From the NCBI GenBank assembly GCA_014905635.1, contig JABVCE010000005.1, positions 310,001-374,000 of the forward strand: a DNA stretch of 64,000 nucleotides, given 5' to 3'. Made by a program: the position numbers and the translations under genes. The DNA is from Scenedesmus sp. PABB004 (taxonomy: Eukaryota). Under the pieces are notes generated by a model. It had not been told where the DNA came from and did no database searches. It worked only from the letters and a program-made list of their open reading frames with translations. This document shows positions 41,101 to 57,900 of this stretch, piece after piece. The stretch's first letter is position 1. The number at the start of each line of letters is the position of its first letter.

Positions 41101-43570
41101 ATGCGGTCCCTGCAGCGCACGCCCGCGGCGCAGCAGCAGCGGCAGCAGCGCGCACCCCCGGCGCAGCGGCTCCCGCGCGCCTTCAGCGCCGCCGCCCCGT
41201 GGCGCTCAGCAGCAGGCGCATCTCGCTCGGGACCGCGGGACAGCACCGCCCGGACCGCGGTCGGCATGGGCCGCAGCGTCGCCGGCAGCGCCGCGCCGGG
41301 CGGGAGCAGCACGCGGGCGCTGCTGCCCGCCGCCCGGAGCGCCGCGCCGGGCGCGGCGGCGGCGCTGGCGGAGCCGGCGCGCGTGGACGCGCTCATCGTC
41401 GGCGGCGGGCCGGCGGGCCTCGCGGCGGCGGTCATGCTCGCGGGGCGCGGCTGGACGGTCGCAGTCGCGGAGCGCAACAGCGTGCTGAGCTACTCGGACC
41501 CGGACCGCTCGTACGTGTACGCCATCGACGGCCGCGGCCGGGCCTGGACGGACCGCTTCGGCGTCACGCAGCGCCTCGCCGAGGCGGCGGTCGACACCAA
41601 GGCCGTCGAGGTGGCGCGAGTCTTCCCGGACGGCGCGACGCGGCGCAGCCGGCAGCTCATCAAGGACGAGGCCCGCGCGGTGCACTGGCTGCCGCGCAGC
41701 GCCTTCCTGCGCCTGCTCGAGGCCCGGGCGCGCGAGGACGCGTCGTTCGTGCAGCTGCTGACCAACACCGAGGCGGTCGGCGTCTCACGCGGCCCGGCGC
41801 TGCGCGTCACGCTGCGCAACACGGTGACCGGCAACGACGCGGTGTTTGAGCCCCGCCTGCTCATCGGCTGCGACGGCATCGCCTCGCTCGTGCGCGGCTC
41901 GCTGCAGGGCTGGGCGGCCGCCGATGGCGCGCCGGCCGGGCGGTTTGCGATGTCGCAGCTCCCCTCGCTCAGCACGGGGCTGCGGTTCAAGGTGCTGCAG
42001 CTGCCGCCAAACCCCGCGATGCGCGACGGCGCGGCACTGGCAAACCCCAGCTTCTGCCTCCTCGCCGGCAAGTCGGCGCCCGCCATCGGCGGCCCGCCGC
42101 TGCGGTGAGCCCGCCCGCAGCGCCGGCCGAGTGCTGATCAGGCAGCGAGCGCCGGCGACGCACGCGCACGCGCGCGCACCGCGCCGCCGCCCACGCTGTC
42201 ACCCGCCGCCGCCGCCGCGCGGCGCAGGCTGGGCCTGCTGCCCATCAAGGACGTGACCGCGGGCCGCACCGCCAACCTCATCACCCTCCCGGACCACCCG
42301 GTGTGGTCGGTGCAGGACGCGGAGACGATGTACACCGGTGTGTGGGTGGGTGTGTGGGTGTGTGGGTGTGTGTGGGGGGGGGGGGGGGCGCACCCGCGCC
42401 GCGCAGCACGCCCGTCACTCGCGCCCGCACGCCGCCCACGCCTCCGCGCGCCGCCTGACGTGCCGCACGCCGGCGCCCGTCTCTGCGCGCGCGCGCGCGG
42501 TCGCAGTGTTTGAGCAGGCGTTCCCCCAGGCTGACTGGCGCGCGCTCGTGCCCGAGACGGTGATGGCCAAGGCACGTGGGGCAGGGGGGTGTTGGCACTG
42601 GCTGGCTGATAGCCAGCCGGCGCCCGAGGCCGAGGGGCCGGGCGCGACGCGCCCCGCCGCCCGCCGCCCCGCCGCGCCCCGCCGCGCCGCGCGCAGTTTG
42701 CCGCCTCGCGCGGCGGCGCCTTCCCGGCGCCCCAGTTCAGCCAGGGCCTCGCGACGGTCGTGGACGCCGCGGCGCCGCCGCACGCGCGGCTGGGCGGCGC
42801 GGCGGTCAAGGGTATCGGCGTGGTGCTCCTGGGCGACGCGGCGCATGCATTCCCGCCCGACCTCGGTGCGCGGCGCTGCGGCGGCGCGGTGGGGTGGGGC
42901 TGAGCGCCCTCCTGACCGCCGTCGGCGCGGCGCTGACGCTGCACGGCTTCGGCTGTGTGCTTCGCCAGCGAGGCGCTGCTGCGCCTGCCCCGATGAGCCC
43001 TGCCGCGCCAATCCAATCCATCCGCCCCGCCGCAGGGCAAGGCGTGAACAGCGCGCTTGAGGACGTGCTGGTCCTGGAGCGCCAGCTGGAGGCGACGGGC
43101 GACGATCTCGGCGCGGCGCTGCCCGCGTTTGAGGTGGCGCGCCTGCCGGACTCGGCCGCGCTCGCCAAGCTCGTGCAGGCGCGCGCCGCCGCCGCCGCCG
43201 CCGCCGTCGCCGCCGCCCCCCGGTTCCCCCCCCCTCACACCCCGCCCCGCCACGCCGCGCCCGCACACCACCGCAGGTGGGCTTCCCGCTGCAATACAAC
43301 CAATTTCCCGTGCGCCGGGTGCTGTGGAACCTCGGTTTCCTTGCCCAGGTGGTGCTGCACAAGGTGCTGCCCTTCCTGGTCAGCCCGCCGCTGTTCATCA
43401 TGGTCCAAGACCCCGCCCGAAGCTACAGCAGCGTCCTCGCCGCGACGCAGCGCAGCCGCGCGGCCGCTGCGGCGCTCGGCGCCGCCGCGCTCGCGGCGCT
43501 CGCCGCGCTCGCCGCGCGCGTGCTGCCGCGCCTGGCGGCCGGGCTTGCGAGCGGCGGCGCGGCGGCGTGA
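41101..43570 (+). CDS. FAD-dependent monooxygenase (kynurenine 3-monooxygenase-like)
   Basis: IVGGGPAGLAAA, LIGCDGIASLVR, LLGDAAHAFPPDL|GQGVNSALED. Confidence 0.9.
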
Positions 43571-43781
43571 GAGGGGCGCAGGCTGCGCTGCGGTGTGGCG
43601 CGCGCACTGGGGAGCTGTGCGGGGCGGCACTGGCGGCCGCGGCTGCGGCAAGTGCATGGGGGTCGTGGCCTCGACCCCTCATGGTTAAGGCTTGAGCGCC
43701 TGTGAGCAAGGTCACGCGCGGGAGGCATTGGGTTCAGCCGGCAATGCGCAGTGCCGCGCCGCTCAAGCGCCCACACCCGCA

Positions 43782-43858
43782 GCTCAGCGCGCGGCTCAGC
43801 GCGCGGCTCAGCGCGCGGCTCAGCGCGCGGCTCAGCGCGCGGCTCAGCGCGCGGCTCA
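43782..43858. repeat. 12-bp tandem repeat (GCTCAGCGCGCG) x ~6
   Basis: Read directly; abuts the stop codon of the minus-strand LRR gene. Confidence 0.9.
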
Positions 43859-46800
43859 TCGGCCGCCGCCGCCGCCCTGCGCCGGGCAGGGCCGCTCGCT
43901 GCCGCCGAGCGCCACCACGCCGCCCGGCCCCGCAGCAAAGACGCTCGCGTTCACTGCCGCAGCATTCATCATGCAGGGATTGTCACGAAGGTCAATGCCG
44001 CCGACCGGGCAGCCGCGCAGCGCCGCCCACTCGAGCGGCACGGTGCCGGTCAGGGCATTGGACGCAAGCCCGAGGCGCTGCAGCGCGGTCAGGCGGCCAA
44101 ACGTCGGCACGAGTGGCCCTGTGAGGGCGTTGTCAGAGATGTTGAGCGACCGGAGGCGCTCCAGCACCGACCAGGCGAGGGGCAGGGGGCCCGTGAGGTT
44201 GCAGGATGCCAGTTTGAGCTCCTGCGTGGTATGGCGGCAGCAGCGCAGCCGGTCAGCTGGCGCGGCCGCAGCGATCGCTGCCGGGCAGCCGTCCCCCACG
44301 GCTTGCTCGCAGAGCAGCGCGCGCACCTTGAGTGCGCCCAGGTGGCCCCACGACGCTGGCAGGCTGCCGCCCAGGTTGCGGTTGCGAGAGAGGTCGATCG
44401 TGGTGAGCGCGCTGAGCGCGCTGAGCTCCGGCGCCAGGCCGCCGGTGAGGGCGTTGTCCGCGAGGCGCAGGACGCGCAGCCCCGCCATCAGCGGGCCGTC
44501 GGCCGCGGCTGCCCAGCCCGCTGGCAGCTGTCCGGTGAGGCCGCAGTCCGTCGCATCCAGCTCCTCCAGCGTCTGCAGGACGGTCCACACGGGCGGCAGG
44601 GAGCCACCAATGCCCTGGTTGCCGGCGAGCCGCAGCGTGCTCAGGCGCGTGAGCATCGCAAAAGCAGTTGGCAGCGGGCCGACGAGGCTCGGGTTGTTGC
44701 GCAGGTCGAGCGTGCGCAGCTCGGCCAGCGCGACGATGTCCGCGGCCGCCGCGTCCAGGCTGCCCTGCAGCCCCAGGCCTGCGAGCACGAGCGTCTGCAG
44801 CGCCGACAGCTTGGACACGTGCGCAGTGAGCTGCTGCAGCGTCATCGGCGCGAGGCGCAGGCCCAGGCCGGCCAGCTCCAGGGCGACGACGCGGTGGTGC
44901 GCGTCGCACGTCACGCCCGCCCAGCCGACGCAGTAAATGAAGGACTGCCCTGTGAGCAGCGACGCAGCGCGGGCGGGGTCAGGTTCTGGCCCAGCTGCAG
45001 CAGGGCGGTCAGCGGCAGTCAGGCGCACAGGCGGTGGGGCCGCGCGCGGGCGCGGCGCGCCTCACCTGCAGGGTCCCCAGACCACGACGCGAGCGCCGCC
45101 GCGTTTGCGGCGCCCTGCTCTAGGCTTGCATTGGTCAGCAGCGCCCGTAGCGCCGCGACGGCACCTCGGTCGGACGCGGAGCACGGCGGGAGCCTAGACT
45201 GGTCCACATCCACACGAAGCATGCTGGGCGCGCACCCGGTGATCCCCGTGCCCCACGCAGAGACGCGCAAGCCAGAAAACTGTCCGCTGAAGCGCGCCCA
45301 AGACGCGGGCACCGAGCCGGTGAGGTGCGCGTTGCCCCAGACTTGGAGGTTATACAGCGGGATGACCCCGCCTGCGCCCCACGCCGCCGGCAGCTCACCC
45401 TCGAGCTGGTTGTCGGACACGTCGAGTTGGTGCAAGCCTGCCATATCCTTCCATGCAGCTGGCAGGCCGCCCGTCAGTGAGTTGTTGCCGAGAAAGATGC
45501 CCTGCGCCGCGGGCCAGTCGCTGCCCCACTGCGGCGGCAGCGGCCCGTGCAGTCCGGCGCCCCGCAGGTCCAGCCATTCCAGCTCTCGCGCGTGCCGAGT
45601 CAAGTCTGGCGGCACCAGTAGGTCGCGCGGCCCATGGCCGGGCGTGCCGGGCTTGTTGGCAGCACACTCGCAGTTGAATTGCTGCAGGTGCGGCAGCTGT
45701 GCTGCCAGCAAGGGCAGGTGTGTGAGGTTCAAGCCCCAGTCGCGCAAAGCATAGATCGACACGACACTTGCCACACCTCCAACCGCACGCAGACCAACAC
45801 CCAGGGTTGCATTGACAGCGCGGACATACGTGTCATTTGCCTGCAGCGCCCGGCCCAGCGGGTTCAGCGCGGCCAGCAATGCGTCAAATGCAGCTGCCGC
45901 CCCCGCATCAGAGCCGGGCAGCAGCAGCGCGCGCAGGGTGGTGTTGAGCGCCTGCCACTGCCCCGCCTCGCTTGGGTCTGCGCCGCACGCGCCGGTGATG
46001 TGCGTGCCGGTGAAGGAGATCCGCCAAGGGTCTGCGACCACCTCTGCGCTGAACGGCAGGCAGCCGCGCAGGTTGGGGTTGTCTTCAAGTTTGAGCCAGA
46101 TCAAGCGCGGGCTCAGCGTCACCCACGATGCGGGGACGGTGCCGCGCAGTTGGTTGCCCGACACGCCGATGTATTGCAGATCGGCAAGCTTGGCCCACTC
46201 AGGGCTGAGCGTGCCATTAAGTATATTGTCTCCCAGGCCCAGAGTGGACAGGCGCGTGAATGCAGTGAGCGGGTAGGCGTGGAGGGCGCCCGACAGCCTC
46301 TGGTTGGTGATTTTCAGCGATGTCAGCGCCTTGCCCTGCCGGAACCACGCGCGTGGGATGGTGCCGGTGACGCCGCAGCTCTTATCCGGGTAATAGGCAT
46401 CAAATGAGATCTCACTGATGTTTTTCCAGCCCAGCAGCCAGTTAGAAGGCAGGCCGCCAGCCAGGCACGAGTGGTAAACGGTGAACGCCTGCAGCTGGCG
46501 CAGCGCACCGAGTTGTATGGGCAGCTCGACGCCCGGCGGGCGGGCAAATTGGTCTTGCACGTCCAAGACTACGAGGCTCTGCCGAAGGCTGAGCAGGTGC
46601 GCGAGCAGGGCGGGCGTGAACACGGTGCGCCCGCCGGGGTCGTCACCAAAGTTTGCGTAAAGTGAGAGCTCTGCGGTCACGTTGGGTGGGGGGTCCGCCG
46701 GCAAGGCCGGCGGCGTGGGGCCAACGGTGGCGTTGCCAAGCGGAGGGGGAGGGGGTGGCAGCGCGTAGCCGGGGCAGTAGGGATCTGGGCCGTGGCCGTT

Positions 46801-49282
46801 CCTGCCCTGGCGCGACGCGTGCAGTGTCACGTAGCCGCCCCCGGGTTGCCCTAGTCGATAATAGAACGGGTCGTCTTCGCCATAGCGCGGGCGGCAGAGC
46901 CACGTGTTGAGCGAAGACGCGCTGGCCGGCGGCTCGTAGTCTGGCTCGTAGTCTGGCGCCAGTGCCTTGAATGCCCAGCAGCGCGCGGACCTGGGCCACC
47001 TCGGGGTCGCTGAACGCGGCGACGTGGTAAAACCCGACTGGGTCGTCCAGCTGGCGGAGACCGCACACCCTGACGGCCCTGCCCACGGGCAAGCGTGACG
47101 TGACGCTGGCGTCCGTGTACTGCAGCTTGCAGTCGACCGTGCCCTTGCCCAAGCGCGTGCAGGGCGCAGGGCCGGTCGCGTTGTCGCAGGTCAGCTCCGT
47201 CGCGGCGCCCAGGGCGTCGTAGTGCGTGCAGCGCACGCGCGGGGGCGGCTCGCCGGGCCGCGCGAGCACGGCCGCGGACGCGTTGAGCACCGCGGCCAGC
47301 GTGTCGTTCTGCAGCGCGACGGCCGACGACAGCGCGTACGTCACGTTGACCGGCGCGCCCCAGAGCCCCGCGGCGTCGTTATCGGCGACAAACGCCCGCA
47401 TGTCCAGTTCAAACGCGTCGGCAATCGACGCGACCGTGTCGCCGGCCGCGGCGCGGTAGTGGACGCACGGGGCGCTGAGGTCGAGCACCTGGCCCGCGTC
47501 GATCAGCTCGACGCGCCGCGGGCGCCGCCAGGGCTGGACGTGGTGCGGGTCGTGCGCTGAGCCTGGCGGCGGCGCGCACTCCACGCCAAACGTCTGGTCT
47601 GGCGTGCCCACGCCTGGAGCCGGGCGGGCGGGCGGGGCGGGCGGCGGCGCAGTCAGGCGCGGGCCCGGCCGCCGCAGTGGGCTGCTGCACTGGGCCGGCG
47701 GCACGCGGCGCGCAGGGCAGCAGCGCCCGGTGCTGGCCGCCGTCGCCCTCGCCGCCGCCGCGCACCTGCGAGGCCCATCTTGACTCGCACGAGGCCGTCG
47801 AGCGTCACGCCGCGCGTGCGCGTCTGCCCCGGCGTGCGGCCGCCGCCCCAGCTGTTCAGGATCAGCCTGCGGCCGCGGCGGCGGCGGGGAACGGTGTGAG
47901 CGCGGCCTGGCCCGGCCTGAGAGCAGCTCAGCCGCGCCGCACCGCACCATGTGTAGTCGGTGTTTGAATAGCCCACGATCACCACGGCATGTCCAAAGGC
48001 CGGCTTGGCGCTCGCGTTGAAGCGGTACGGCGGCCACGCCTCGCCGGCCACGTCGCGCGCGGTCGCGTTGAACTGCACTTCCCAGTCGTCGTAGATGGTG
48101 ATGCGGCTGATGACGGCGCCGTGGTTGCGGATGTGCTGCTGGATCTGCGGGCGCACGCAGTCACACGCGGTCACGCGGCGGGCGTCCGACTGGCTGTGCA
48201 CCCCGCGCGCGCCGGGCGCCCGCAGCAGGGCCGGCGCCTGCCGCCACCACCCACCTGCCAGAACGTGCTCAGGGCAGTGTAGTTACAGTTGAGGTAGGGC
48301 CTGTCGGCACTGATGGCGCTGCACGCCGCTGCCGCGGCGTCGCAGGCCGCCCCCCAGCTGGTGCGTTCCGACTGCGCGTTGTCGTCGTTCAGCGGGCTGC
48401 CAGTGCCGAGGCAGCTGTCCGGGCGGATGAGCTCCCGCGCCTCATCAATCTGCGGCGGCGGCGCGGGCACGCTCGGCGCCCTGGCGCGACCCGGGCAAGG
48501 CGCGGGGCCCGCCTGCCCACGGCTTGCGCGCGCGCGCGCACCGCGAGGTGAAGCTGCTCCTGGATGCCAAACCCTGCCGGGCGAGCGCGCGCGCGGTCGG
48601 GCGCGTCGGCGGCGGGGTGGCGCAGCGCGCACAGCGCGCACAGCACGCGCCGCCGAGCCGCCGCCGCCGCTGCTGCCGCGCGCGCGCACCGGTCTTGCAC
48701 GACCGGCCGCCCGTGGTGCAGAAAAACAAGGACGGCGCGCTGACAGCCCAGGCCCGGGGGTCGACCTGCTGCGTCGCCGCCGCCGACATGCTGATCGCCG
48801 TCGCGGCCGCGTGCGCGACGCAGGTCGAGCACTCGCGCTGGTCGCGCGGCGGCGGCACAAACGCGTTGCAGTCGCTCCGGCGCCACACGCGGCCGCTCGG
48901 CGCCCCGGACCGCACGGCCAGCGAATCGCACGTCCCAAAGTCCTTCGCCGCGCCCGCCAGAAAGTAGACGCCGCGCTGCAGCGCCTTGAGACGATCGATG
49001 TCGGTGAATGTGGTGCTCCCCGTGCGCGTGCCGCCGCGGCCGCCGTTGCCGCGGCCGCCGGTCGAGTCGGCGGCCAGGGCGAGCGCCTCCTCGAACGCGT
49101 CGAACTCGCTCGCGGTCGCCGCCTCCCCAGCGCCCAGTTGCTCGCTGCTCGCGTCGAGGCCCTGGCCCGCCGTGTCGTGGGCGGGCGAGCAGCAGCAGCG
49201 TCACCGCGCACAGGGCCGCACGGCGGCGCGGCGTCACTGCAGGCCGCTGCTTCGCCGCCGCCGCTGCCGGCCCTGCTGCCAT
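43856..49282 (-). CDS. Secreted papain-family (C1A) protease + LysM + multiple LRR blocks; two +1 frameshifts as assembled
   Basis: Signal-like ALCAVTLLLLA; PPRDQRECSTCVAHA, FGHAVVIVGY, LILNSWG; HYRAAAGDTVASIADAFELDMRAFVADN; many LxxLxLxxNxLxGxLPxxW repeats; no TM seen. Confidence 0.8.
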
Positions 49283-53102: not shown

Positions 53103-54901
53103 ATGCGCGCGCTTGCCATGCGCCATGCGCGCCGCCGCGCCGGCGGCGGCAGCGGCGGCACCGGCGCGCCGGCGGCCGCGCCGCTGCTGCCGCTGCTCCT
53201 GGCGGTGCTGCTCCTGCTGGCGCCCGCGCGTGGCGGGGCGGCCGCCCCGGCCGCAGCGCCGCCAGCAGCGCGGCCAGCGGCGGCAGCGGCGCCAGCGGCG
53301 GCGGCGGCGGCACCGGCGGCGCCGACCACGTGCCCCGGGCTGGACGGCGGCGTCTGCGGCGCGGCGTGCCAGCGGGTGACGTGCGAGGCGCTGGCCGGGT
53401 TCTACAAGGCCACGTTCAACGCGAGCAAGCCGCTCGACACGCCGAGCTGGGCGAACAGCGACGTGCGGCGGCTGCCGCGGCGGCGCGGCGCTGCCCGCCC
53501 CGCGCGGGTGCAGCCGGCGCAGCCGGCGCAGCCGGCCGCCGCCGACCCCGCCGCCGCCGCCGCTGCGCCGCGCAGGGCTGGGCGCTGACGAAGCGGCAGT
53601 CGTGCGCGCAGCTGCTGGCGCGGCGGGGCGCGGCGCCGAGCTACTGCGGCTGGTACGGCGTGGACTGCTGCACGCCCGACGAGCTCGCGGCGCGCGCGTG
53701 CGCGGGCGTGAACGGCGTGGCGGGGCTGCGCGTGCCCGTGAACGGCCTCAACGCCAGCGTCGGCAGCCCCGGCATGGTCGACAACCTGCTGCAGCTGCAC
53801 GCGTGCGGGCTCACGGCCCTACGCCTGCAGGGCAACGGTGTGCGCGCGCGCGGGTGGCTGCGCGCGCACGCACACGGCACGCGCGCGCTGGGGCGGGTGG
53901 ATGCGGGCGCGCGGCGATGGGGCGGCAGCAGCGGCGGGCGACGTGCCCGCGGCGGCGGCGGCGGCTGGCCGACGCGGGCGCGGCCCGACCGCGCCGCCGC
54001 CGCCGCCTCTGCCGCCGCCCAGATCTGAGCGGCGAAATGACTGACGACTGGGGCAGGCTCACCAACCTCACGCACCTGGACCTCTGTGAGCGGCGGCGGC
54101 TGGGGGCGCGGCGGGCGCGCGCGCGGCGTACGGCCCGCGCGGCGCGCCGGGGCGGCCGCGCGCCGCCGCACCGCCAGGCCCGCCGCCCACCGCCGCCCGC
54201 CGCGCCGCCGCCGGCCGCCGCGCCGCCGCCCGCGCCCCGCGTCATCAGCCAACAACTGGCTCAACGGCACCATCCCCTCGGCGCTGCTCTCGCTGAGCCG
54301 GCTGGAGCTCCTCGCGCTGGGGAATAACTTCTTCCAGGGCCCGCTGCCGCCGTGGCTGGGCAAGCTGTCGGCGCTGCGCACGCTCGCGCTGGGGGCCAAC
54401 GTGGGCCTCAACCCCGACGGCCGCCAGGGCCTGACGGGCACCATCCCCGAGGCGCTCGCGGAGCTGCCCGCGCTGAGCGTGCTGGACCTCGGCACCAACG
54501 CGCTCTCGGGCGCCCTCCCGGGCGGGCTGTGCGGCGTGCACCGCACGCTCACGGTCGTGAAGCTGCGCGCCAACGCGCTCACCGGCCGCGCGACGCAGCT
54601 GGCAAACTGCAGCGCGCTCACGCAGCTCGACATCAGCGGCAACCGCTTCTCCGGCCTCGTCCCCGCGTCGCAGTCGCTGACCTCGCTCGCCGTGCTCGAC
54701 GCGTCGGGCAACGAGTTTGAGGGCGCCATCCCCGCCGCCATCTACGGCCTGCCCGTCCTCGCGTTCCTCAACCTCGGACGAAACAAGTGGGCGGCCCGCG
54801 CGCGCGCCGCGCGCGCGCGGCGGAGGCGGCGGAGGCGGGCAAGGCGGGGGCGAGCGCGCCCGCGCGCGCGCGCGCGACGACCTCGGGCGCTGCCGGGCTG
54901 A

Positions 54902-54955
<54 letters not shown>

Positions 54956-57900
54956 GCGTCAGGCTGACGGGGCACATCGAGCGCGGCATCACGCTCAACC
55001 AGTTCCTCACTGAGCTCATACTCGCGCACAACCAGGCACGCACGGCGCCAGCCGCGCCGCGGCGCGGCGCGGCGGCGCTCGGCGCGGCGGCCCGCAGCGC
55101 CTTTGGGCGGCGCGGCTGCGCGCCCGGACCACCCCGCGGCCGCCGCGTCACGCGACCCACCGCCGCCGCCGCCGCCGCCGCGCCGCCGCCGCGCCCGCCG
55201 CCGTGCAGCTGACGGGCCCAATCGACGAGAACCTGTGGTTCCTGCCGCAGCTGCGCCTGCTCGACATCAGCCACAACAGCCTCACCGGCACGCTCAGCGT
55301 GGCGATCGGGTGCGCGCCGCGCCGCCGCGCCGCGCCCAGCGCCCAGCGCACTCGCCGCCCACCGCTCACCGCGCGCTGCCCGCCCACCCGCCGCAACGTC
55401 CGCGCGCGGCGCGCCCGCAGGCTGTCGTTCAACCTGGTTGAGGTCGGCCTGGACACCAACCGCCAGCTCAGCGGCGCGCTGCCGCCCGAGATGGGCATCC
55501 TGGCCGGCCTGCGCATCGTGGACGTGCGCAACTCGAGCATGTCGTGCCTCGGCGCAGGCGCCGACGCCGCGCCCGGCGCGCCCGGCGGCGCGGCCGCGCG
55601 GCGCTGCGGCGCCGACGAGCTGCTGCCCTGCTTCCTCACATTCAGCAAGCTCACGCTGCCGCGGACGGACCAGAGCAACATGGCCTGCCCCGTCATCCTG
55701 CGCCGCCCCGCGGCCGAGGCGGTCGCCGCGTGCGAGGGCGGCGGGCCGATGCAGCTCGCGGAGCAGGCGGTCAACCTGGCAGTGGTGACCGAGGAGCAGC
55801 AGTGGCTGCTCGACCCTGACTACTATCAGTATCGGGGCTGCCGCTGCCTCGAGGTGCGGCCGCGGCGCTAGCGGCCGCGCGGCGCCGGCGGCCGCGCGGC
55901 GCCGGCGGCGCACAGGCCGCCCGCGCGCGCGCCTGCCGACCTCTGCCGACCGCCGCCGCAGGGGTACCGTGAGGTGTGGGAGAGCGGCGAGACGGCGCTG
56001 CACTGCGAGCCCGAGGTCCACAAGCTGCCGGCCTGGGTGGTCCCGACCGCGGCGGTCGCCGCCGTCTGCGCCGCGATGCTGCTTGCCGCGGTCGCGCTGC
56101 TCGTGTGGCTGCGCATGGCGGTGCAGCTGCGCCCGCGCTGGCAGCGCGAGAAGGAGCTCGCCGCCAACCGGCGCAAGGGCGTGCCGCGCGGCGCGGCGGC
56201 CCTGGTGGTCACCGACATCGAGAAATTCTCAGGTGCGCCCCGCGCGGGCTGGCGTGGCGCCGCGCGCCGCGCGGGCTGGCGTCGGCGCCGCGCCGCGCGC
56301 CGCGCTGGCGGCAGCGCGGCGTGCGGCCGCTGAGCCGCCCCGCCCCGCCCCGCCCCGCCCCGTGCGCCGCGCGCCGGTCCGGCCCGGTCCACGCCGCAGA
56401 GCTGATGACCATCAACGCCCCGCTCACCACCAAGGCGCTGGGCATGCACAACGGCATCCTGCGCCGCACCGCCGCGGCGCACGCGGGGCACGTGGTGGAG
56501 CAGGAGGGCGACAGCTGGAGCATCGCCTTCCACACGCCCATGGACGCGCTCGCGTTCTGCCTCCAGGCGCAGCAGGCGCTCGAAAAGACAAACTGGCAGC
56601 TCGACCTCGACACGGGGCGCATGCACCGCGGCTCCAGCGCCGGCACCGGCGGCACCGGCGGGTCGACGCCGGACCTCGGCAACCGCAGCATCATCGACCG
56701 GCAGCAGCACTACTCGCAGCCGCTCACGCTCAACACCTGGGGCGGCTCCGACCGCCCCGCGGCGACGCCGTCGGCGCCCGCGCTGGGCACGGGCTGGACG
56801 GCGCGGCGCAGGGCCGCCTGCGTGAGTCCAAGAGCACCGGCGGCGGCATGGCCGGCCTGGACGAGGAGGCTGTGGTAGTGGAGGCCCCGGACGCCCCGCC
56901 GCTGCGCTCGGCGAGCGGCGCCAGCGCCGGCGCGCTGCTGGCGCCGGCCGACGCTCGGCGCAGCGGCAGCTGGACCGAGCAGGCGACCGGCGCCGCGCGG
57001 CGCGGCGGCGGCGCCGGGGCGCTGTCGTCCAGCGGCGCGCGGCTGCAGCAGCTGCTGGCGGGGCGCGAAACCTCGAGCAGCAGCCTGGCCGGCAGCAGCA
57101 GCGAGCCCCTGGGCGTGCCCAACGGCGCGCTCGGCGGCGCGCCGAGGGCGGCGTCAGCCACGGGCGGCATGGGCGGCCTGCTGCACGGCCTGCGCGTGCG
57201 CCTGCGCTCGGCCAGCAGCACCGGCAGCGGCAGCGTGGGCGACGGCCCGCCCCCGAGTGGCCTGAGCGCCGGCAGCTTCGGCGGCCGGGCAAGCAGCATG
57301 GATACCAGCGGCCGCGGCGGCACCGCCGCGCTGGCCCGGGGCCGGCCGAGCGCCGGCAGCACCGTCGCGTTTTCCACGCTGCCGCCCGGTGCGATCGCCG
57401 GCGGCGCGGGAGCCGCCGGCGCGGCCGCCGGCGGCGCGGGCGCCGGCAGCGCCACCAACCAGGCGGGGTCTGGCAGCGCGGGCCGCTTCTGGTCGCGCCT
57501 CGGGCTGGGCACCGGCAGCCGCGGCGCGCTCGGCGTGCAGGGCCTGCGCGTGCGCATGGGCGTCGCCAGCGGCGTCGTGCCCCTCAACACCAACATCTGC
57601 CGCTCGGCGCTCTACACGCTGGCCAAGGGTGCGCGCCCGCCCCGGGCCGCCGCGCCGCGCGCTCGCGCGCGCCGCCGTCCCCGCCGCCTGCGGGACTGCC
57701 CGCGTGCCTGCCCCCCGCCCACTCCCAACATCCCGCGCCGCCGCCCGGCGCGCAGCCGTGTGCGACATGGCGCAGGGCGGGCAGGTGCTGCTGGAGGCGC
57801 GCTGCTTCGCCGAGGTGCGTGACCGCCTGCCGGAGCTGGGCACGATCGACCACCGGGGCTACAACGACAAGCTCCTCGCCAGCACCACGAAGACGCTCAT

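Follow-up and report, generated by a model that had tools for sequence, protein, structure and literature searches.

Does a single gene at positions 49282..43856 (-) of the window, the stretch of 64,000 nucleotides of Scenedesmus sp. PABB004 DNA analysed here, join a papain-family (C1) protease to a LysM-like module and to LRR blocks, and what might such a protein do? A sequence-only reading had proposed this combination as a secreted single-chain recognition and effector molecule, and all the elements that it listed were located on this strand between these limits. We consider it likely that a scenedesmacean alga of very high G+C content carries here a nuclear gene for a predicted secreted, heavily N-glycosylated papain-LysM-like-LRR protein without a membrane anchor.

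Gene structure and predicted product

The locus is a green-algal gene of nine exons, running on the minus strand from an ATG at 49282-49280 to a TGA stop at 43858-43856, with the following features:

49184..49282 (-), start codon and signal peptide (sequence and translation)
49170..49183 (-), frame break 1, signal-peptide and protease frames off by one base
48850..49169 (-), N-terminal region of ~105 residues between signal peptide and C1 domain, including a Gly/Arg-rich stretch
47575..48849 (-), C1 catalytic domain in six exons (..48690, 48573-48542, 48449-48255, 48144-47948, 47866-47766, 47613..)
48689-48574, 48541-48450, 48254-48145, 47947-47867, 47765-47614, 45065-44995, 44326-44222 (-), seven introns, positions set by paralogue alignments
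46971..47613 (-), Cys-rich middle module, 214 residues long; all four sequences compared share 7 of its Cys
47467-47378 (-), strand-helix-helix, LysM-like, part of a predicted split fold
47377-47078 (-), predicted inserted alpha/beta subdomain of ~95 residues, interrupting the LysM-like fold
~47077-47063 (-), predicted closing strand of the LysM-like fold
46970..46971 (-), frame break 2, window two bases short of near-identical metagenome contigs
46675..46773 (-), Pro-rich spacer with Pro runs and an N-glycosylation sequon (sequence)
45973..46626 (-), LRR block 1, plant-specific repeats with a Cys-containing cap at the end (Pfam LRR and motif scan)
45169..45960 (-), LRR block 2, helical N-cap-like lead-in, repeats and Cys-containing cap
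43859..45168 (-), LRR block 3, about ten repeats and a C-terminal Cys cap

The seven GT..AG introns are 71-152 nt long, have a G+C content of 76-87% and all take the form GTG..CAG, and the exon borders agree with four paralogues (tblastn) and with canonical splice sites. The chosen frames hold ~1530 codons without a stop. At a G+C content of ~80%, chance alone produces long open frames in every one of the six reading frames, so that the absence of stop codons from the gene is only weakly informative.

The gene model predicts a product of ~1565 residues with 35 Cys and 20 N-x-S/T sequons, ordered as signal peptide, ~105-residue region, C1 domain, Cys-rich and presumably disulfide-rich module, Pro-rich spacer and three LRR blocks. 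As the sequence-only reading had stated, no TM segment is found in the ~1565-residue model (highest 19-residue Kyte-Doolittle mean, 1.58), and a Pfam scan of the window protein detected no kinase or other signalling part.

The signal peptide had also been recognized correctly, with a basic n-region followed by a Leu-rich hydrophobic core, though its frame differs from that of the remainder of exon 1. Signal-peptide-like N-termini are likewise present in relatives P0002, P0003, P0083 and P0100, and in the paralogues and P0083 a Met and a hydrophobic stretch directly precede a shared mature start (GQGL..S..QLGAGEA). The ~105-residue region that follows shares 71-77% identity with paralogues P0001 and P0002 and may constitute a pro-region; Pfam returned no match to I29 or any other prodomain at E<=10 in the window protein.

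A divergent papain-family domain

The C1 assignment was borne out by Pfam, in which the exon carrying Gln and Cys exceeds the Peptidase_C1 (PF00112) cut-off of 20.7 bits with scores of 24.2 and 23.5 bits. The catalytic residues lie where they had been placed, on the minus strand: Gln (48840-48838), Cys (48822-48820), His (47991-47989) and Asn (47856-47854), with Ser-Trp-Gly following the Asn. The domain also contains a 32-nt micro-exon (48573-48542), visible through paralogue alignments, which the earlier reading had overlooked together with both frame breaks.

PF00112 passes its cut-off in all four PABB004 paralogues (E 3e-7 to 8e-9, profile positions 7-193 of 220), as it does in six of nine other relatives. 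Both the window and the relatives with complete models keep the Gln/Cys, His and Asn-Ser-Trp-Gly motifs. A search of the ESM-Atlas with P0083 placed it, at a weak score (0.83), near PF00112 clusters, which make up all neighbours among the matches listed, and comparison of a single relative with PDB sequences gave a best papain-family match at E 0.16, with antibody chains as 3 of the 8 matches. Judged by its sequence, the C1 domain is divergent but catalytically complete, and is a predicted protease.

The Cys-rich middle module and its relation to LysM

The LysM-like motif proposed earlier is present at 47467-47378 and finds support at the level of the fold, but falls short of the Pfam cut-off (14.5 versus 20.9 bits, E 0.036, profile positions 2-27 of 43). 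LysM gave no Pfam match at E<=0.1 on the raw window ORF, and was absent at E<=0.01 from all four PABB004 paralogues. LysM thus does not score in the window itself, yet family and fold evidence still points to it.

Using the window module as a phmmer query, we retrieved 52 relatives at E<=1e-3, one of which is a genuine 8xLysM-M23 protein that aligns with query residues 38-87. The Pfam LysM cut-off was reached by 2 of 50 relatives scanned, with two more just under it. When the family profile was compared with all PDB sequences, four matched at E<=10, with Ecp6 (E 0.0034) and MltD (E 0.022), both LysM proteins, at the top, and hhalign against an 8xLysM protein gave a probability of 64.8% over 32 columns.

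A structural model of the module built from 35 sequences (pLDDT 85.5, pTM 0.71) places the strand-helix-helix at residues 49-77. Foldseek against the PDB yielded nothing at E<=0.001. In a structure search of 48,161 chains, LysM appears in the title of 5 of the 50 matches listed, and some eight further proteins among these presumably contain LysM as well. The matches titled as LysM include that of the Volvox chitinase, aligned over 49/49 residues at Z 4.5 and rmsd 2.0, and one from T. thermophilus with the same Z and an rmsd of 1.8. LysM domains in this search score Z 3.6-4.9 and span model residues ~48-186 with only ~48 aligned, in a range (Z 3.6-5.1) that the tool calls common and in which the best-ranked match is not a LysM protein.

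These weak but convergent lines of family-level and fold evidence point to a predicted LysM fold split by an insert of ~95 residues, which in the model sits in the loop preceding the last LysM strand. This loop contributes to glycan binding in LysM domains. Glycan binding by the module may therefore be lost or altered, and the binding of GlcNAc polymers cannot simply be transferred to a LysM fold split in this manner.

Pro-rich spacer and LRR blocks

Chlorophycean algal walls contain hydroxyproline-rich proteins, and on this basis the Pro-rich spacer that follows the module is probably an extended, glycosylated linker. Beyond it, the expectation of about three capped LRR blocks was confirmed at 46626-45973, 45960-45169 and 45168-43859, the 3' exons overall matching LRR families at E 1e-8 to 3e-21 (Pfam). 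The first block shares 38-50% identity with the paralogues. Exon residues 461-529 in the second match LRR_8 (E 3.2e-11) and LRR_1 (E 4e-9). The third presents a classical plant N-cap (Cys-x-Trp-x-Gly-Val-x-Cys), its lead-in separated by intron 45065-44995, and an in-frame intron (44326-44222); it matches LRR_1 (E 1.5e-13 and 2e-8), LRR_4 and LRR_8, and the paralogues have their C-terminus at the same point. The LRRs of P0002 match solved plant LRR ectodomains (GSO1, E 4e-64; PGIP, E 1e-15).

Protease and LRRs in one chain

The central element of the proposal, a single chain, rests on exon 47613..45066, which encodes without interruption the last C1 strand, the LysM-like module, the Pro-rich spacer and LRR blocks 1 and 2, so that protease and LRRs are not separate genes. 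The same order is seen in all four PABB004 paralogues and in Tetradesmus obliquus WIA41421.1 (P0049), which carries the C1 domain (below threshold, 16.7 bits), the module and LRRs. Metagenome ORFs P0046, P0059 and P0053 show the module followed by LRRs.

We accordingly judge it very improbable that two adjoining genes or transcripts, one for the protease and one for the LRRs, only look fused here. Model fusion does occur in such genomes, since public paralogue models are over-merged at their 5' ends, with PIG-U, PD40 or Clp_N upstream of an internal Met and signal peptide, and the C1 domain is found without LRR families detectable at E<=0.05 in all nine mid-length relatives. Against separate genes stand the uninterrupted exon, the lack of any signal peptide or Met-led start ahead of the LRR part, and the recurrence of the same order in independent metagenome ORFs and T. 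obliquus. The single-chain protein is thus the reading that we retain. The nine mid-length relatives nevertheless indicate that the LRR tail is not universal, and some relatives may lack LRRs.

A scenedesmacean family of hypothetical proteins

A C1 domain followed by LRRs is common to four PABB004 proteins, and Tetradesmus and Scenedesmus sp. NREL 46B-D3 have further relatives, which are either unnamed or annotated as "hypothetical". By sequence comparison, they make up a paralogous family whose named sources all belong to the Scenedesmaceae. One member (P0100), a complete ORF in transcriptome sequence of Tetradesmus deserticola, is hence transcribed. The P0004 model opens with the end of another copy lying before it, a hint of tandem arrays. 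The claim that this architecture had not been characterized holds insofar as our literature searches found no paper describing a papain-LysM-LRR protein, but the architecture is that of a family already in public databases as hypothetical proteins, and not a one-off.

Two frame breaks in the window copy

Read literally, the window copy gives no such full-length protein, because it contains two frame breaks. No usable GT..AG intron explains the first, across which the sequence is unbroken in the paralogues. At the second, one contig in each of two metagenome runs (depth 3.7 and 3.5) has AC inserted behind 46970. With AC restored, the frame continues into the LRR part as in the paralogues, and the alignment with P0002 shows the protein unbroken across this point. 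Absence from near-identical contigs applies to frame break 2 only, at this low depth of 3.5-3.7.

Either the assembly of the window copy is thus wrong at two spots, or the copy is an allele in decay within a family that is functional otherwise. That it is a pseudogene, a decaying paralogue yielding no full-length protein, is a serious possibility that stops somewhat short of probable. Both breaks are departures from all paralogues, and the second truly sets the window copy apart from near-identical contigs in which the frame is kept; relative to the metagenome strain, moreover, SNPs are evenly divided between synonymous (6) and non-synonymous (6), in a sample too small to show constraint. However, all seven splice-site pairs are intact, the catalytic residues and all seven conserved module Cys are retained, and the other two indels relative to that strain (+3 and -12) are multiples of three and preserve the frame. 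Small indels are also a frequent assembly error at 80% G+C.

Possible roles

In the mechanism that we propose, binding to a ligand or to the matrix would fall to the LysM-like module and the three LRR blocks, which would hold the protease on a particular target outside the cell. That target would be either a microbial surface or a glycoprotein or glycan in the wall of the alga itself, and the C1 domain would then cleave proteins there. A role other than wall/matrix or defence seems doubtful to us.

Tentatively, the family may comprise housekeeping proteases of the autolysin or processing type, acting on the alga's own glycoprotein wall as daughter cells leave the mother wall, as coenobia form or as the wall matures, with the LRR and LysM-like parts docking on wall glycoproteins. 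Such a role is consistent with a protein that is predicted to be secreted, is Cys-rich and heavily glycosylatable, and bears a Pro-rich spacer of a kind typical of wall proteins in chlorophycean algae, as well as with the several paralogues per genome and the tandem arrays suggested by P0004. Volvocine extracellular-matrix gene families are likewise organized as multi-paralogue tandem arrays. The matches of the paralogue LRRs also include LRX and PGIP, secreted LRR wall proteins of plants without TM segments. On the other hand, no family member appears among the maternal-wall proteins in the accessible part of a paper on the wall proteome of Scenedesmus obliquus (PMC11839794).

A secreted "recognize-and-cleave" immune molecule, whose LysM-like module and LRRs would bind microbial patterns (chitin of chytrid or aphelid parasites, peptidoglycan or microbial proteins) while the protease attacks the invader or frees signals, appears rather unlikely. 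The LysM-like fold indicated by family profile, model, structure search and hhalign would suit this function, as would LRRs of the type found in plant pattern receptors and PGIP. Among the paralogues, the LRR parts (38-52% identity) diverge faster than the protease and module (56-77%), a difference that fits recognition surfaces and weaker constraint alike. Against defence, the ~95-residue insert in the LysM loop makes glycan binding uncertain, and the protein has neither a TM segment nor a kinase or any other part for signalling.

Volvox offers a precedent for a defensive role. It reportedly possesses a LysM-chitinase induced on wounding, and a Volvox chitinase LysM is among our structural matches. 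A Volvox cysteine protease with chitin-binding repeats is also said to be induced by wounding and pheromone, and provides a partial precedent for the papain-LysM-like-LRR protein described here.

A gene of a scenedesmacean family, modeled from homology and splice sites

The window has a G+C content of ~80% overall (0.70-0.84 per 2 kb), and each of its six reading frames is open over runs of 150-700 codons in which Ala, Arg, Gly and Pro are abundant. Because this composition opens every frame, open stretches are not evidence of genes here, and the gene model was therefore built on homology and splice sites, combining a reading of the minus strand with tblastn alignments on the window of four paralogous Scenedesmus sp. 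PABB004 proteins (P0001-P0004). The gene body has a G+C content of 0.705-0.713, slightly below that of its flanks, and the low-complexity parts of the paralogue models match dozens of places in the window by tblastn. A G+C content of 78.5%, like that of the window, is given for the Scenedesmus sp. PABB004 genome in PMC12571836. The tblastn alignments of the four paralogues cover every exon of the window gene in order, and the C-termini coincide. The resulting model is as follows.

Start codon, exons and stop codon of the window gene, with the basis of each assignment
49282-49280, minus strand: start codon (sequence reading)
49282 to 48690, minus strand: exon 1 (paralogue tblastn and splice sites)
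48573-48542, minus strand: micro-exon of 32 nt (paralogue alignment)
48449-48255, minus strand: exon (paralogue tblastn and splice sites)
48144-47948, minus strand: exon (paralogue tblastn and splice sites)
47866-47766, minus strand: exon (paralogue tblastn and splice sites)
47613-45066, minus strand: large exon (paralogue tblastn and splice sites)
44994-44327, minus strand: exon (paralogue tblastn and splice sites)
44221-43856, minus strand: last exon (paralogue tblastn and splice sites)
43858-43856, minus strand: stop codon TGA (sequence reading)

All seven introns are of the spliceosomal type, which marks the source as eukaryotic, with GTG at the 5' end and CAG at the 3' end, and measure 71-152 nt at 76-87% G+C. 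The micro-exon, overlooked in an earlier sequence-only reading of this DNA, encodes residues that run on without a gap in the paralogues, and in their alignment it accounts for the junction at which a GC donor (48687) had been considered and was dropped. The conceptual product, ~1565 residues long, contains 35 Cys and 20 N-x-S/T sequons. No transmembrane (TM) segment is apparent over its whole length, the maximum 19-residue Kyte-Doolittle mean being 1.58, and the stop codon coincides with the paralogue C-termini, indicating that no downstream TM exon has been missed; both observations agree with the TM-free protein first proposed. Directly 3' of the TGA, in the presumed 3' UTR, the 13-nt unit GCCGCGCGCTGAG (minus strand) is repeated ~6 times head to tail (43780-43855). 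Just downstream of the gene, the translation of a plus-strand open frame (42564-43688) includes residues similar to the FAD-binding fingerprint of aromatic-ring/kynurenine monooxygenases (...GQGVNSALEDV...).

The best matches of the large exon were the four PABB004 paralogues (E 4e-152 to 4e-102, 40-51% identity), none of which is identical to the window gene. All four carry both the Peptidase_C1 family (PF00112) and LRR families; the other 38 matches all carry LRR families, and PF00112 is present in none of them. Paralogue identity amounts to 56-77% in the protease and module exons and 38-52% in the LRR exons, and the module, a 214-residue Cys-rich middle part (47613..46971), shows 58-72% identity in alignment A1 of family sequences. 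The order seen in the window gene (N-terminal region, C1 domain, Cys-rich LysM-like module, LRR blocks) recurs in P0001-P0004 and in WIA41421.1 of Tetradesmus obliquus (P0049), which is shorter than the window gene (954 residues). The LRR blocks are present in the long family members. The named relatives of the protease and module part all come from T. obliquus, T. deserticola or Scenedesmus sp. NREL 46B-D3, and are labelled by their sources as 'hypothetical protein' or 'Peptidase C1A papain C-terminal domain-containing protein'. By sequence, then, the window gene belongs to a scenedesmacean C1/LysM-like/LRR family, every named source being Scenedesmus or Tetradesmus.

The four paralogues are automated predictions, labelled 'hypothetical protein' or 'MSL1' by their source. 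Their models contain unrelated upstream domains (PIG-U in P0001, a Clp_N-like domain in P0002 and PD40 repeats in P0003 and P0004), and in each of them the conserved mature N-terminus is immediately preceded by an internal Met and a hydrophobic stretch. As judged from these features, the public models fuse each paralogue to unrelated upstream sequence at its 5' end. Furthermore, the LRR cap that closes a preceding copy at its C-terminus stands at the start of the P0004 model, a hint that paralogues lie head to tail in tandem on one contig.

Protease and LRR parts on a single chain

The exon at 47613-45066 encodes, in this order, the final conserved C1 strand, the module, the spacer and LRR blocks 1 and 2. 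Since this one exon spans both parts, the link between the C1 domain and the LRRs is independent of splice prediction. The same order is found in independent open reading frames (ORFs) on metagenome contigs, three of which (P0046, P0059 and P0053) contain the module followed by LRRs, while others contain the end of the C1 domain followed by the module. The single chain first proposed is supported by the large exon and by these ORFs. In the T. obliquus protein, a C1 match of 16.7 bits (below threshold) is accompanied by the module and the LRRs. No LRR was detected at E<=0.05 in any of nine mid-length relatives, including a 'complete' 711-residue ORF of T. deserticola. This last ORF comes from a transcriptome, which shows that some member of the family is expressed.

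State of the window copy

The reading frame of the window copy is broken at two places. The signal peptide (49282-49184) lies in a different frame from the rest of exon 1, which places the first break within 49183-49170, where the paralogues are continuous; the second is a shift at 46971/46970, where P0002 is continuous. A 43-nt GT..AG intron (49204-49162) that would join the ATG and protease frames was rejected because it would take out the signal peptide's hydrophobic core and is far below the other introns in length (71-152 nt). A 103-nt intron (47068-46966) bridging the second break was likewise rejected, given that the paralogues are homologous throughout and that two additional nt in metagenome contigs bring the frame back.

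These contigs derive from the two runs listed by a search of sequencing data, both of them DNA-type freshwater metagenomes of one study and neither of them RNA, and many of the pieces are short and run into unlike sequence. Over the parts covered they are near-identical to the window, with 14 base differences and three indels. The two extra bases that restore the frame at 46971/46970 are present in a single contig from each run (depths of 3.7 and 3.5), and the other two indels (+3 and -12 nt) are both in frame. The 12 coding differences among the 14 comprise six synonymous and six non-synonymous changes, three of the latter near a contig end, a sample too small to speak to constraint. A joint of 48566 to 48773, skipping 206, was seen in one contig and was disregarded. 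Just after the second break, a 12-nt tandem duplication encoding Asp-Tyr-Glu-Pro (46920-46965, minus strand) has one copy fewer in the metagenome strain (12 nt out at 46931), an in-frame length polymorphism.

Two explanations of the frame breaks, mis-assembly of the window copy at two spots and decay of the allele, appear to us to be about equally probable, and the family is real whichever of them holds. For annotation, the public paralogue models should be read as over-merged at the 5' side and the window copy as doubtful at two spots.

A divergent C1 domain predicted to be catalytically complete

In the window, the exon bearing the Gln and Cys matched PF00112 above threshold (24.2 and 23.5 bits against a cut-off of 20.7), and no PF00112 match was obtained on the His and Asn exons scanned singly. 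The same family scored above cut-off in all four PABB004 paralogues (29-36 bits, E 3e-7 to 8e-9, profile positions 7-193 of 220) and in six of nine further relatives. The catalytic Gln (48840-48838) is followed six residues on by the Cys (48822-48820), the His (47991-47989) lies within a Gly-His-Ala motif (47994-47986), and the Asn (47856-47854) opens an Asn-Ser-Trp-Gly motif. These motifs recur across the family in the order typical of C1 proteases. The Gln named by the sequence-only reading is present, the Cys, His and Asn lie where that reading had placed them, and PF00112 passes its cut-off; taken at the level of sequence, the motifs show a C1 domain that is catalytically complete and divergent.

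This divergence is apparent in searches with the relative P0083. Compared alone with all PDB sequences, its best match was ginger protease II (1cqd; E 0.16), with which the Cys region and the His/Asn-Ser-Trp-Gly region align correctly, and antibody chains made up three of the eight matches. In the ESM Atlas, the neighbors of P0083 were all PF00112 clusters among the matches listed, with a weak score of 0.83. The region between the signal peptide and the C1 domain contains ~105 conserved residues, and Pfam searches of the N-terminal exon yielded no match at E<=10 to I29 or another prodomain family.

A likely LysM core with an inserted subdomain

The motif reported earlier as LysM-like (47467-47378) matched the Pfam LysM family (PF01476) with 14.5 bits (E 0.036), below the cut-off of 20.9 and over profile positions 2-27 of 43 only; none of the four PABB004 paralogues gave a Pfam LysM match at E<=0.01. 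The score thus speaks against the claim of a LysM domain in the window, which was to be abandoned if LysM did not score, but profile and model results favor a LysM core. Searched by word index against longer proteins, the module retrieved P0002 only, whereas an exhaustive phmmer search of a representative library with the 214-residue module recovered 52 proteins at E<=1e-3, 25 of them at E<=1e-10. One match was a bona fide 8xLysM-M23 peptidase, aligned to query residues 38-87. The LysM cut-off was reached by two of the 50 relatives scanned (22.4 and 20.9 bits), with two more below it (18.9 and 16.1 bits). A profile of 35 family sequences (A2) gave four matches at E<=10 among all PDB sequences, the best being the LysM proteins Ecp6 (E 0.0034) and MltD (E 0.022) and the remaining two FabG (E 0.6-0.8). 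Aligned with the 8xLysM protein by hhalign, A2 yielded a probability of 64.8% over 32 columns.

An AlphaFold model of the module computed with A2 (pLDDT 85.5, pTM 0.71) replaced an earlier four-sequence model, which was set aside at pLDDT 53.8. The predicted fold consists of a strand (residues 49-53), two helices (60-66 and 71-77), an alpha/beta subdomain (~88-167) and a further strand (179-183). Foldseek found no match to the whole module model in the PDB at E<=0.001. A separate structure search of 48,161 chains listed 50 matches with Z 3.6-5.1, which is the tool's 'common' range. The top match is not a LysM protein, and LysM is named in the titles of five of the 50 (Volvox chitinase, T. thermophilus, AtlA, intimin and MltD); we take about eight more to contain LysM as well (SleL, two CEBiP entries, LYK3, a Bacillus L,D-transpeptidase, Kbp, P2 gpX and an NlpC/P60 enzyme). 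The Volvox chitinase LysM superposes with Z 4.5 and an rmsd of 2.0 over 49 of its 49 residues (22% identity), and that of T. thermophilus with Z 4.5 and an rmsd of 1.8.

The LysM structures (Z 3.6-4.9, rmsd 1.8-2.3) span model residues ~48-186 with only ~48 residues aligned, which would place the closing strand on the far side of an insert. The module is therefore modeled as a LysM core in which ~95 inserted residues part the closing strand from the second helix, a fold that is likely and not proven, because the Z values lie in the 'common' range and the top match is not a LysM protein. Such an insert, preceding the closing strand, would explain why the Pfam match is limited to the first 27 profile positions. 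Its position presumably corresponds to a loop that forms part of the LysM glycan-binding groove. A split LysM would be a small structural curiosity, and it cautions against inferring 'binds chitin' from a motif match.

Three capped LRR blocks

The three 3' exons matched the Pfam families LRR_1 (E 1.5e-13 to 4e-9), LRR_8 (E 3e-11 to 1e-8) and LRR_4, and a motif scan resolved the following parts.

Spacer and LRR blocks of the window gene
46773-46675, minus strand: Pro-rich spacer preceding LRR block 1
46626-45973, minus strand: LRR block 1 (motif scan)
45960-45169, minus strand: LRR block 2 (motif scan)
45168-43859, minus strand: LRR block 3 (motif scan)

Each block is closed by a Cys-containing cap, which, together with the Pfam matches, upholds the approximately three capped LRR blocks initially described. 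Block 3 opens with the classical plant cap Cys-x-Trp-x-Gly-Val-x-Cys, parted from its helical lead-in by the intron at 45065-44995, and this split accounts for the lack of a Pfam LRRNT_2 match. No kinase family matched any exon in Pfam. With neither a TM segment nor a kinase, the predicted product falls outside the LRR receptor-like kinases and receptor-like proteins. Among solved LRR structures, P0002 matched GSO1 (E 4e-64), FLS2, PGIP (1e-15) and LRX (3e-11).

Elsewhere in the window, a plus-strand stretch at 54200-55150 encodes LRRs that resemble those of P0001-P0004 (29-35% identity, E 1e-9 to 1e-13), with no accompanying protease or module match. It is probably a separate gene for a secreted LRR protein.

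Proposed mode of action and role

The window gene combines a secretory-type N-terminus, a C1 domain and three LRR solenoids, with a LysM-like, disulfide-rich module and a Pro-rich linker lying between protease and LRRs, and it has no anchor; from these features we infer a secreted and glycosylated protein. Binding of a protein or glycan ligand by the LRRs and the module would concentrate the protease on its target.

Two roles fit such an activity. The protein may process the alga's own glycoprotein wall during daughter-cell release or coenobium formation, a role consistent with the wall-protein-like linker and with a multi-copy, possibly tandem family; against it, the terms leucine, papain, cysteine prote-, peptidase and MSL1 are all absent from the main text of a proteome paper on the maternal wall of Scenedesmus obliquus (PMC11839794). 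The protein may instead serve in defense against chitin- or peptidoglycan-bearing parasites, a role favored by the probable LysM ancestry, the PRR-type LRRs and the faster divergence of the LRR parts (38-52% vs 56-77% identity). A precedent from Volvox also favors defense: Amon, Haas and Sumper reportedly described in 1998 a wound- and pheromone-induced secreted cysteine protease of Volvox carteri with LysM-type chitin-binding repeats and proposed that it acts in defense. Volvox is absent among the named matches of the large exon, of the module and of the protease-plus-module relatives.

A more far-reaching proposal, which we regard as improbable, sees the family as an extracellular 'sensor-protease' on one chain, equivalent in soluble algal form to the apoplastic protease/LRR receptor pairing of plants, where the papain-like protease Rcr3 of tomato is paired with the LRR receptor Cf-2. 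A ligand of microbial or wall-damage origin, held by the LRR blocks or the modified LysM module, would position or unmask the protease, coupling recognition and proteolytic response in one secreted molecule, and the paralogues would diversify their LRR surfaces against different targets. Were this true, green algae would possess an innate-immunity logic without a membrane receptor.

If the family is active, it would be a compact model in which to study how an enzyme is aimed by an LRR array, and would provide a first handle on extracellular proteolysis in the Scenedesmaceae, be it in wall turnover or in defense against chytrids, aphelids and bacteria. Scenedesmaceae are grown at scale, and such parasites cause pond crashes. 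The family, whose copy in the window is imperfect, is a useful lead for specialists in algal walls and immunity rather than a surprise.

Comparison with known systems

Searches of a full-text literature in which most subscription-journal papers are not represented yielded no account of a papain-LysM-LRR chain or of the family, in line with the earlier view that the architecture is uncharacterized. Taken singly, the domains are all of known types, while their combination and the putative split LysM represent variants.

With papain-like C1A proteases (ginger protease II 1cqd, ficin, cathepsin L-like enzymes) the family shares the order of Gln, Cys, His and Asn-Ser-Trp-Gly. It differs from them in its very divergent PF00112 match (23-46 bits), in having Val rather than Trp after the catalytic Cys, in a long insert between the two lobes, in that no I29 prodomain was detected, and in the fusion of the C1 domain to ~1150 further residues. 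In plants, papain-like cysteine proteases, such as the apoplastic Rcr3 and Pip1 of tomato, act together with LRR receptors, each being a protein of its own.

The first ~30 residues of the module fit the consensus Tyr-x-x-x-x-Gly-Asp-Thr-x-x-x-Ile-Ala...Asn of LysM domains (Volvox carteri chitinase 5k2l, E. coli MltD 1e0g, Cladosporium Ecp6 4b8v, rice CEBiP 5jce), and its predicted core superposes on whole LysM domains with an rmsd of 1.8-2.3 Å at 20-25% identity. In contrast to these domains, the module has an inserted subdomain of ~95 residues and a match below the Pfam cut-off in the window, and unlike tandem LysM repeats it occurs as a single copy. The secreted cysteine protease reported from Volvox resembles this family by description, as a chlorophycean secreted cysteine protease joined to a LysM-type part; that protease is said to lack an LRR part and to carry its binding repeats N-terminally and in tandem.

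Finally, plant-specific 24-residue LRRs and Cys-flanked caps are common to the family and to PGIP (1ogq), the LRR-extensins (6qwn), GSO1 (6s6q) and FLS2 (4mn8), among which PGIP and LRX, like this family, have neither TM segment nor kinase. What sets the family apart from these plant LRR proteins is the presence of three separate capped LRR modules in tandem, joined to an enzyme.
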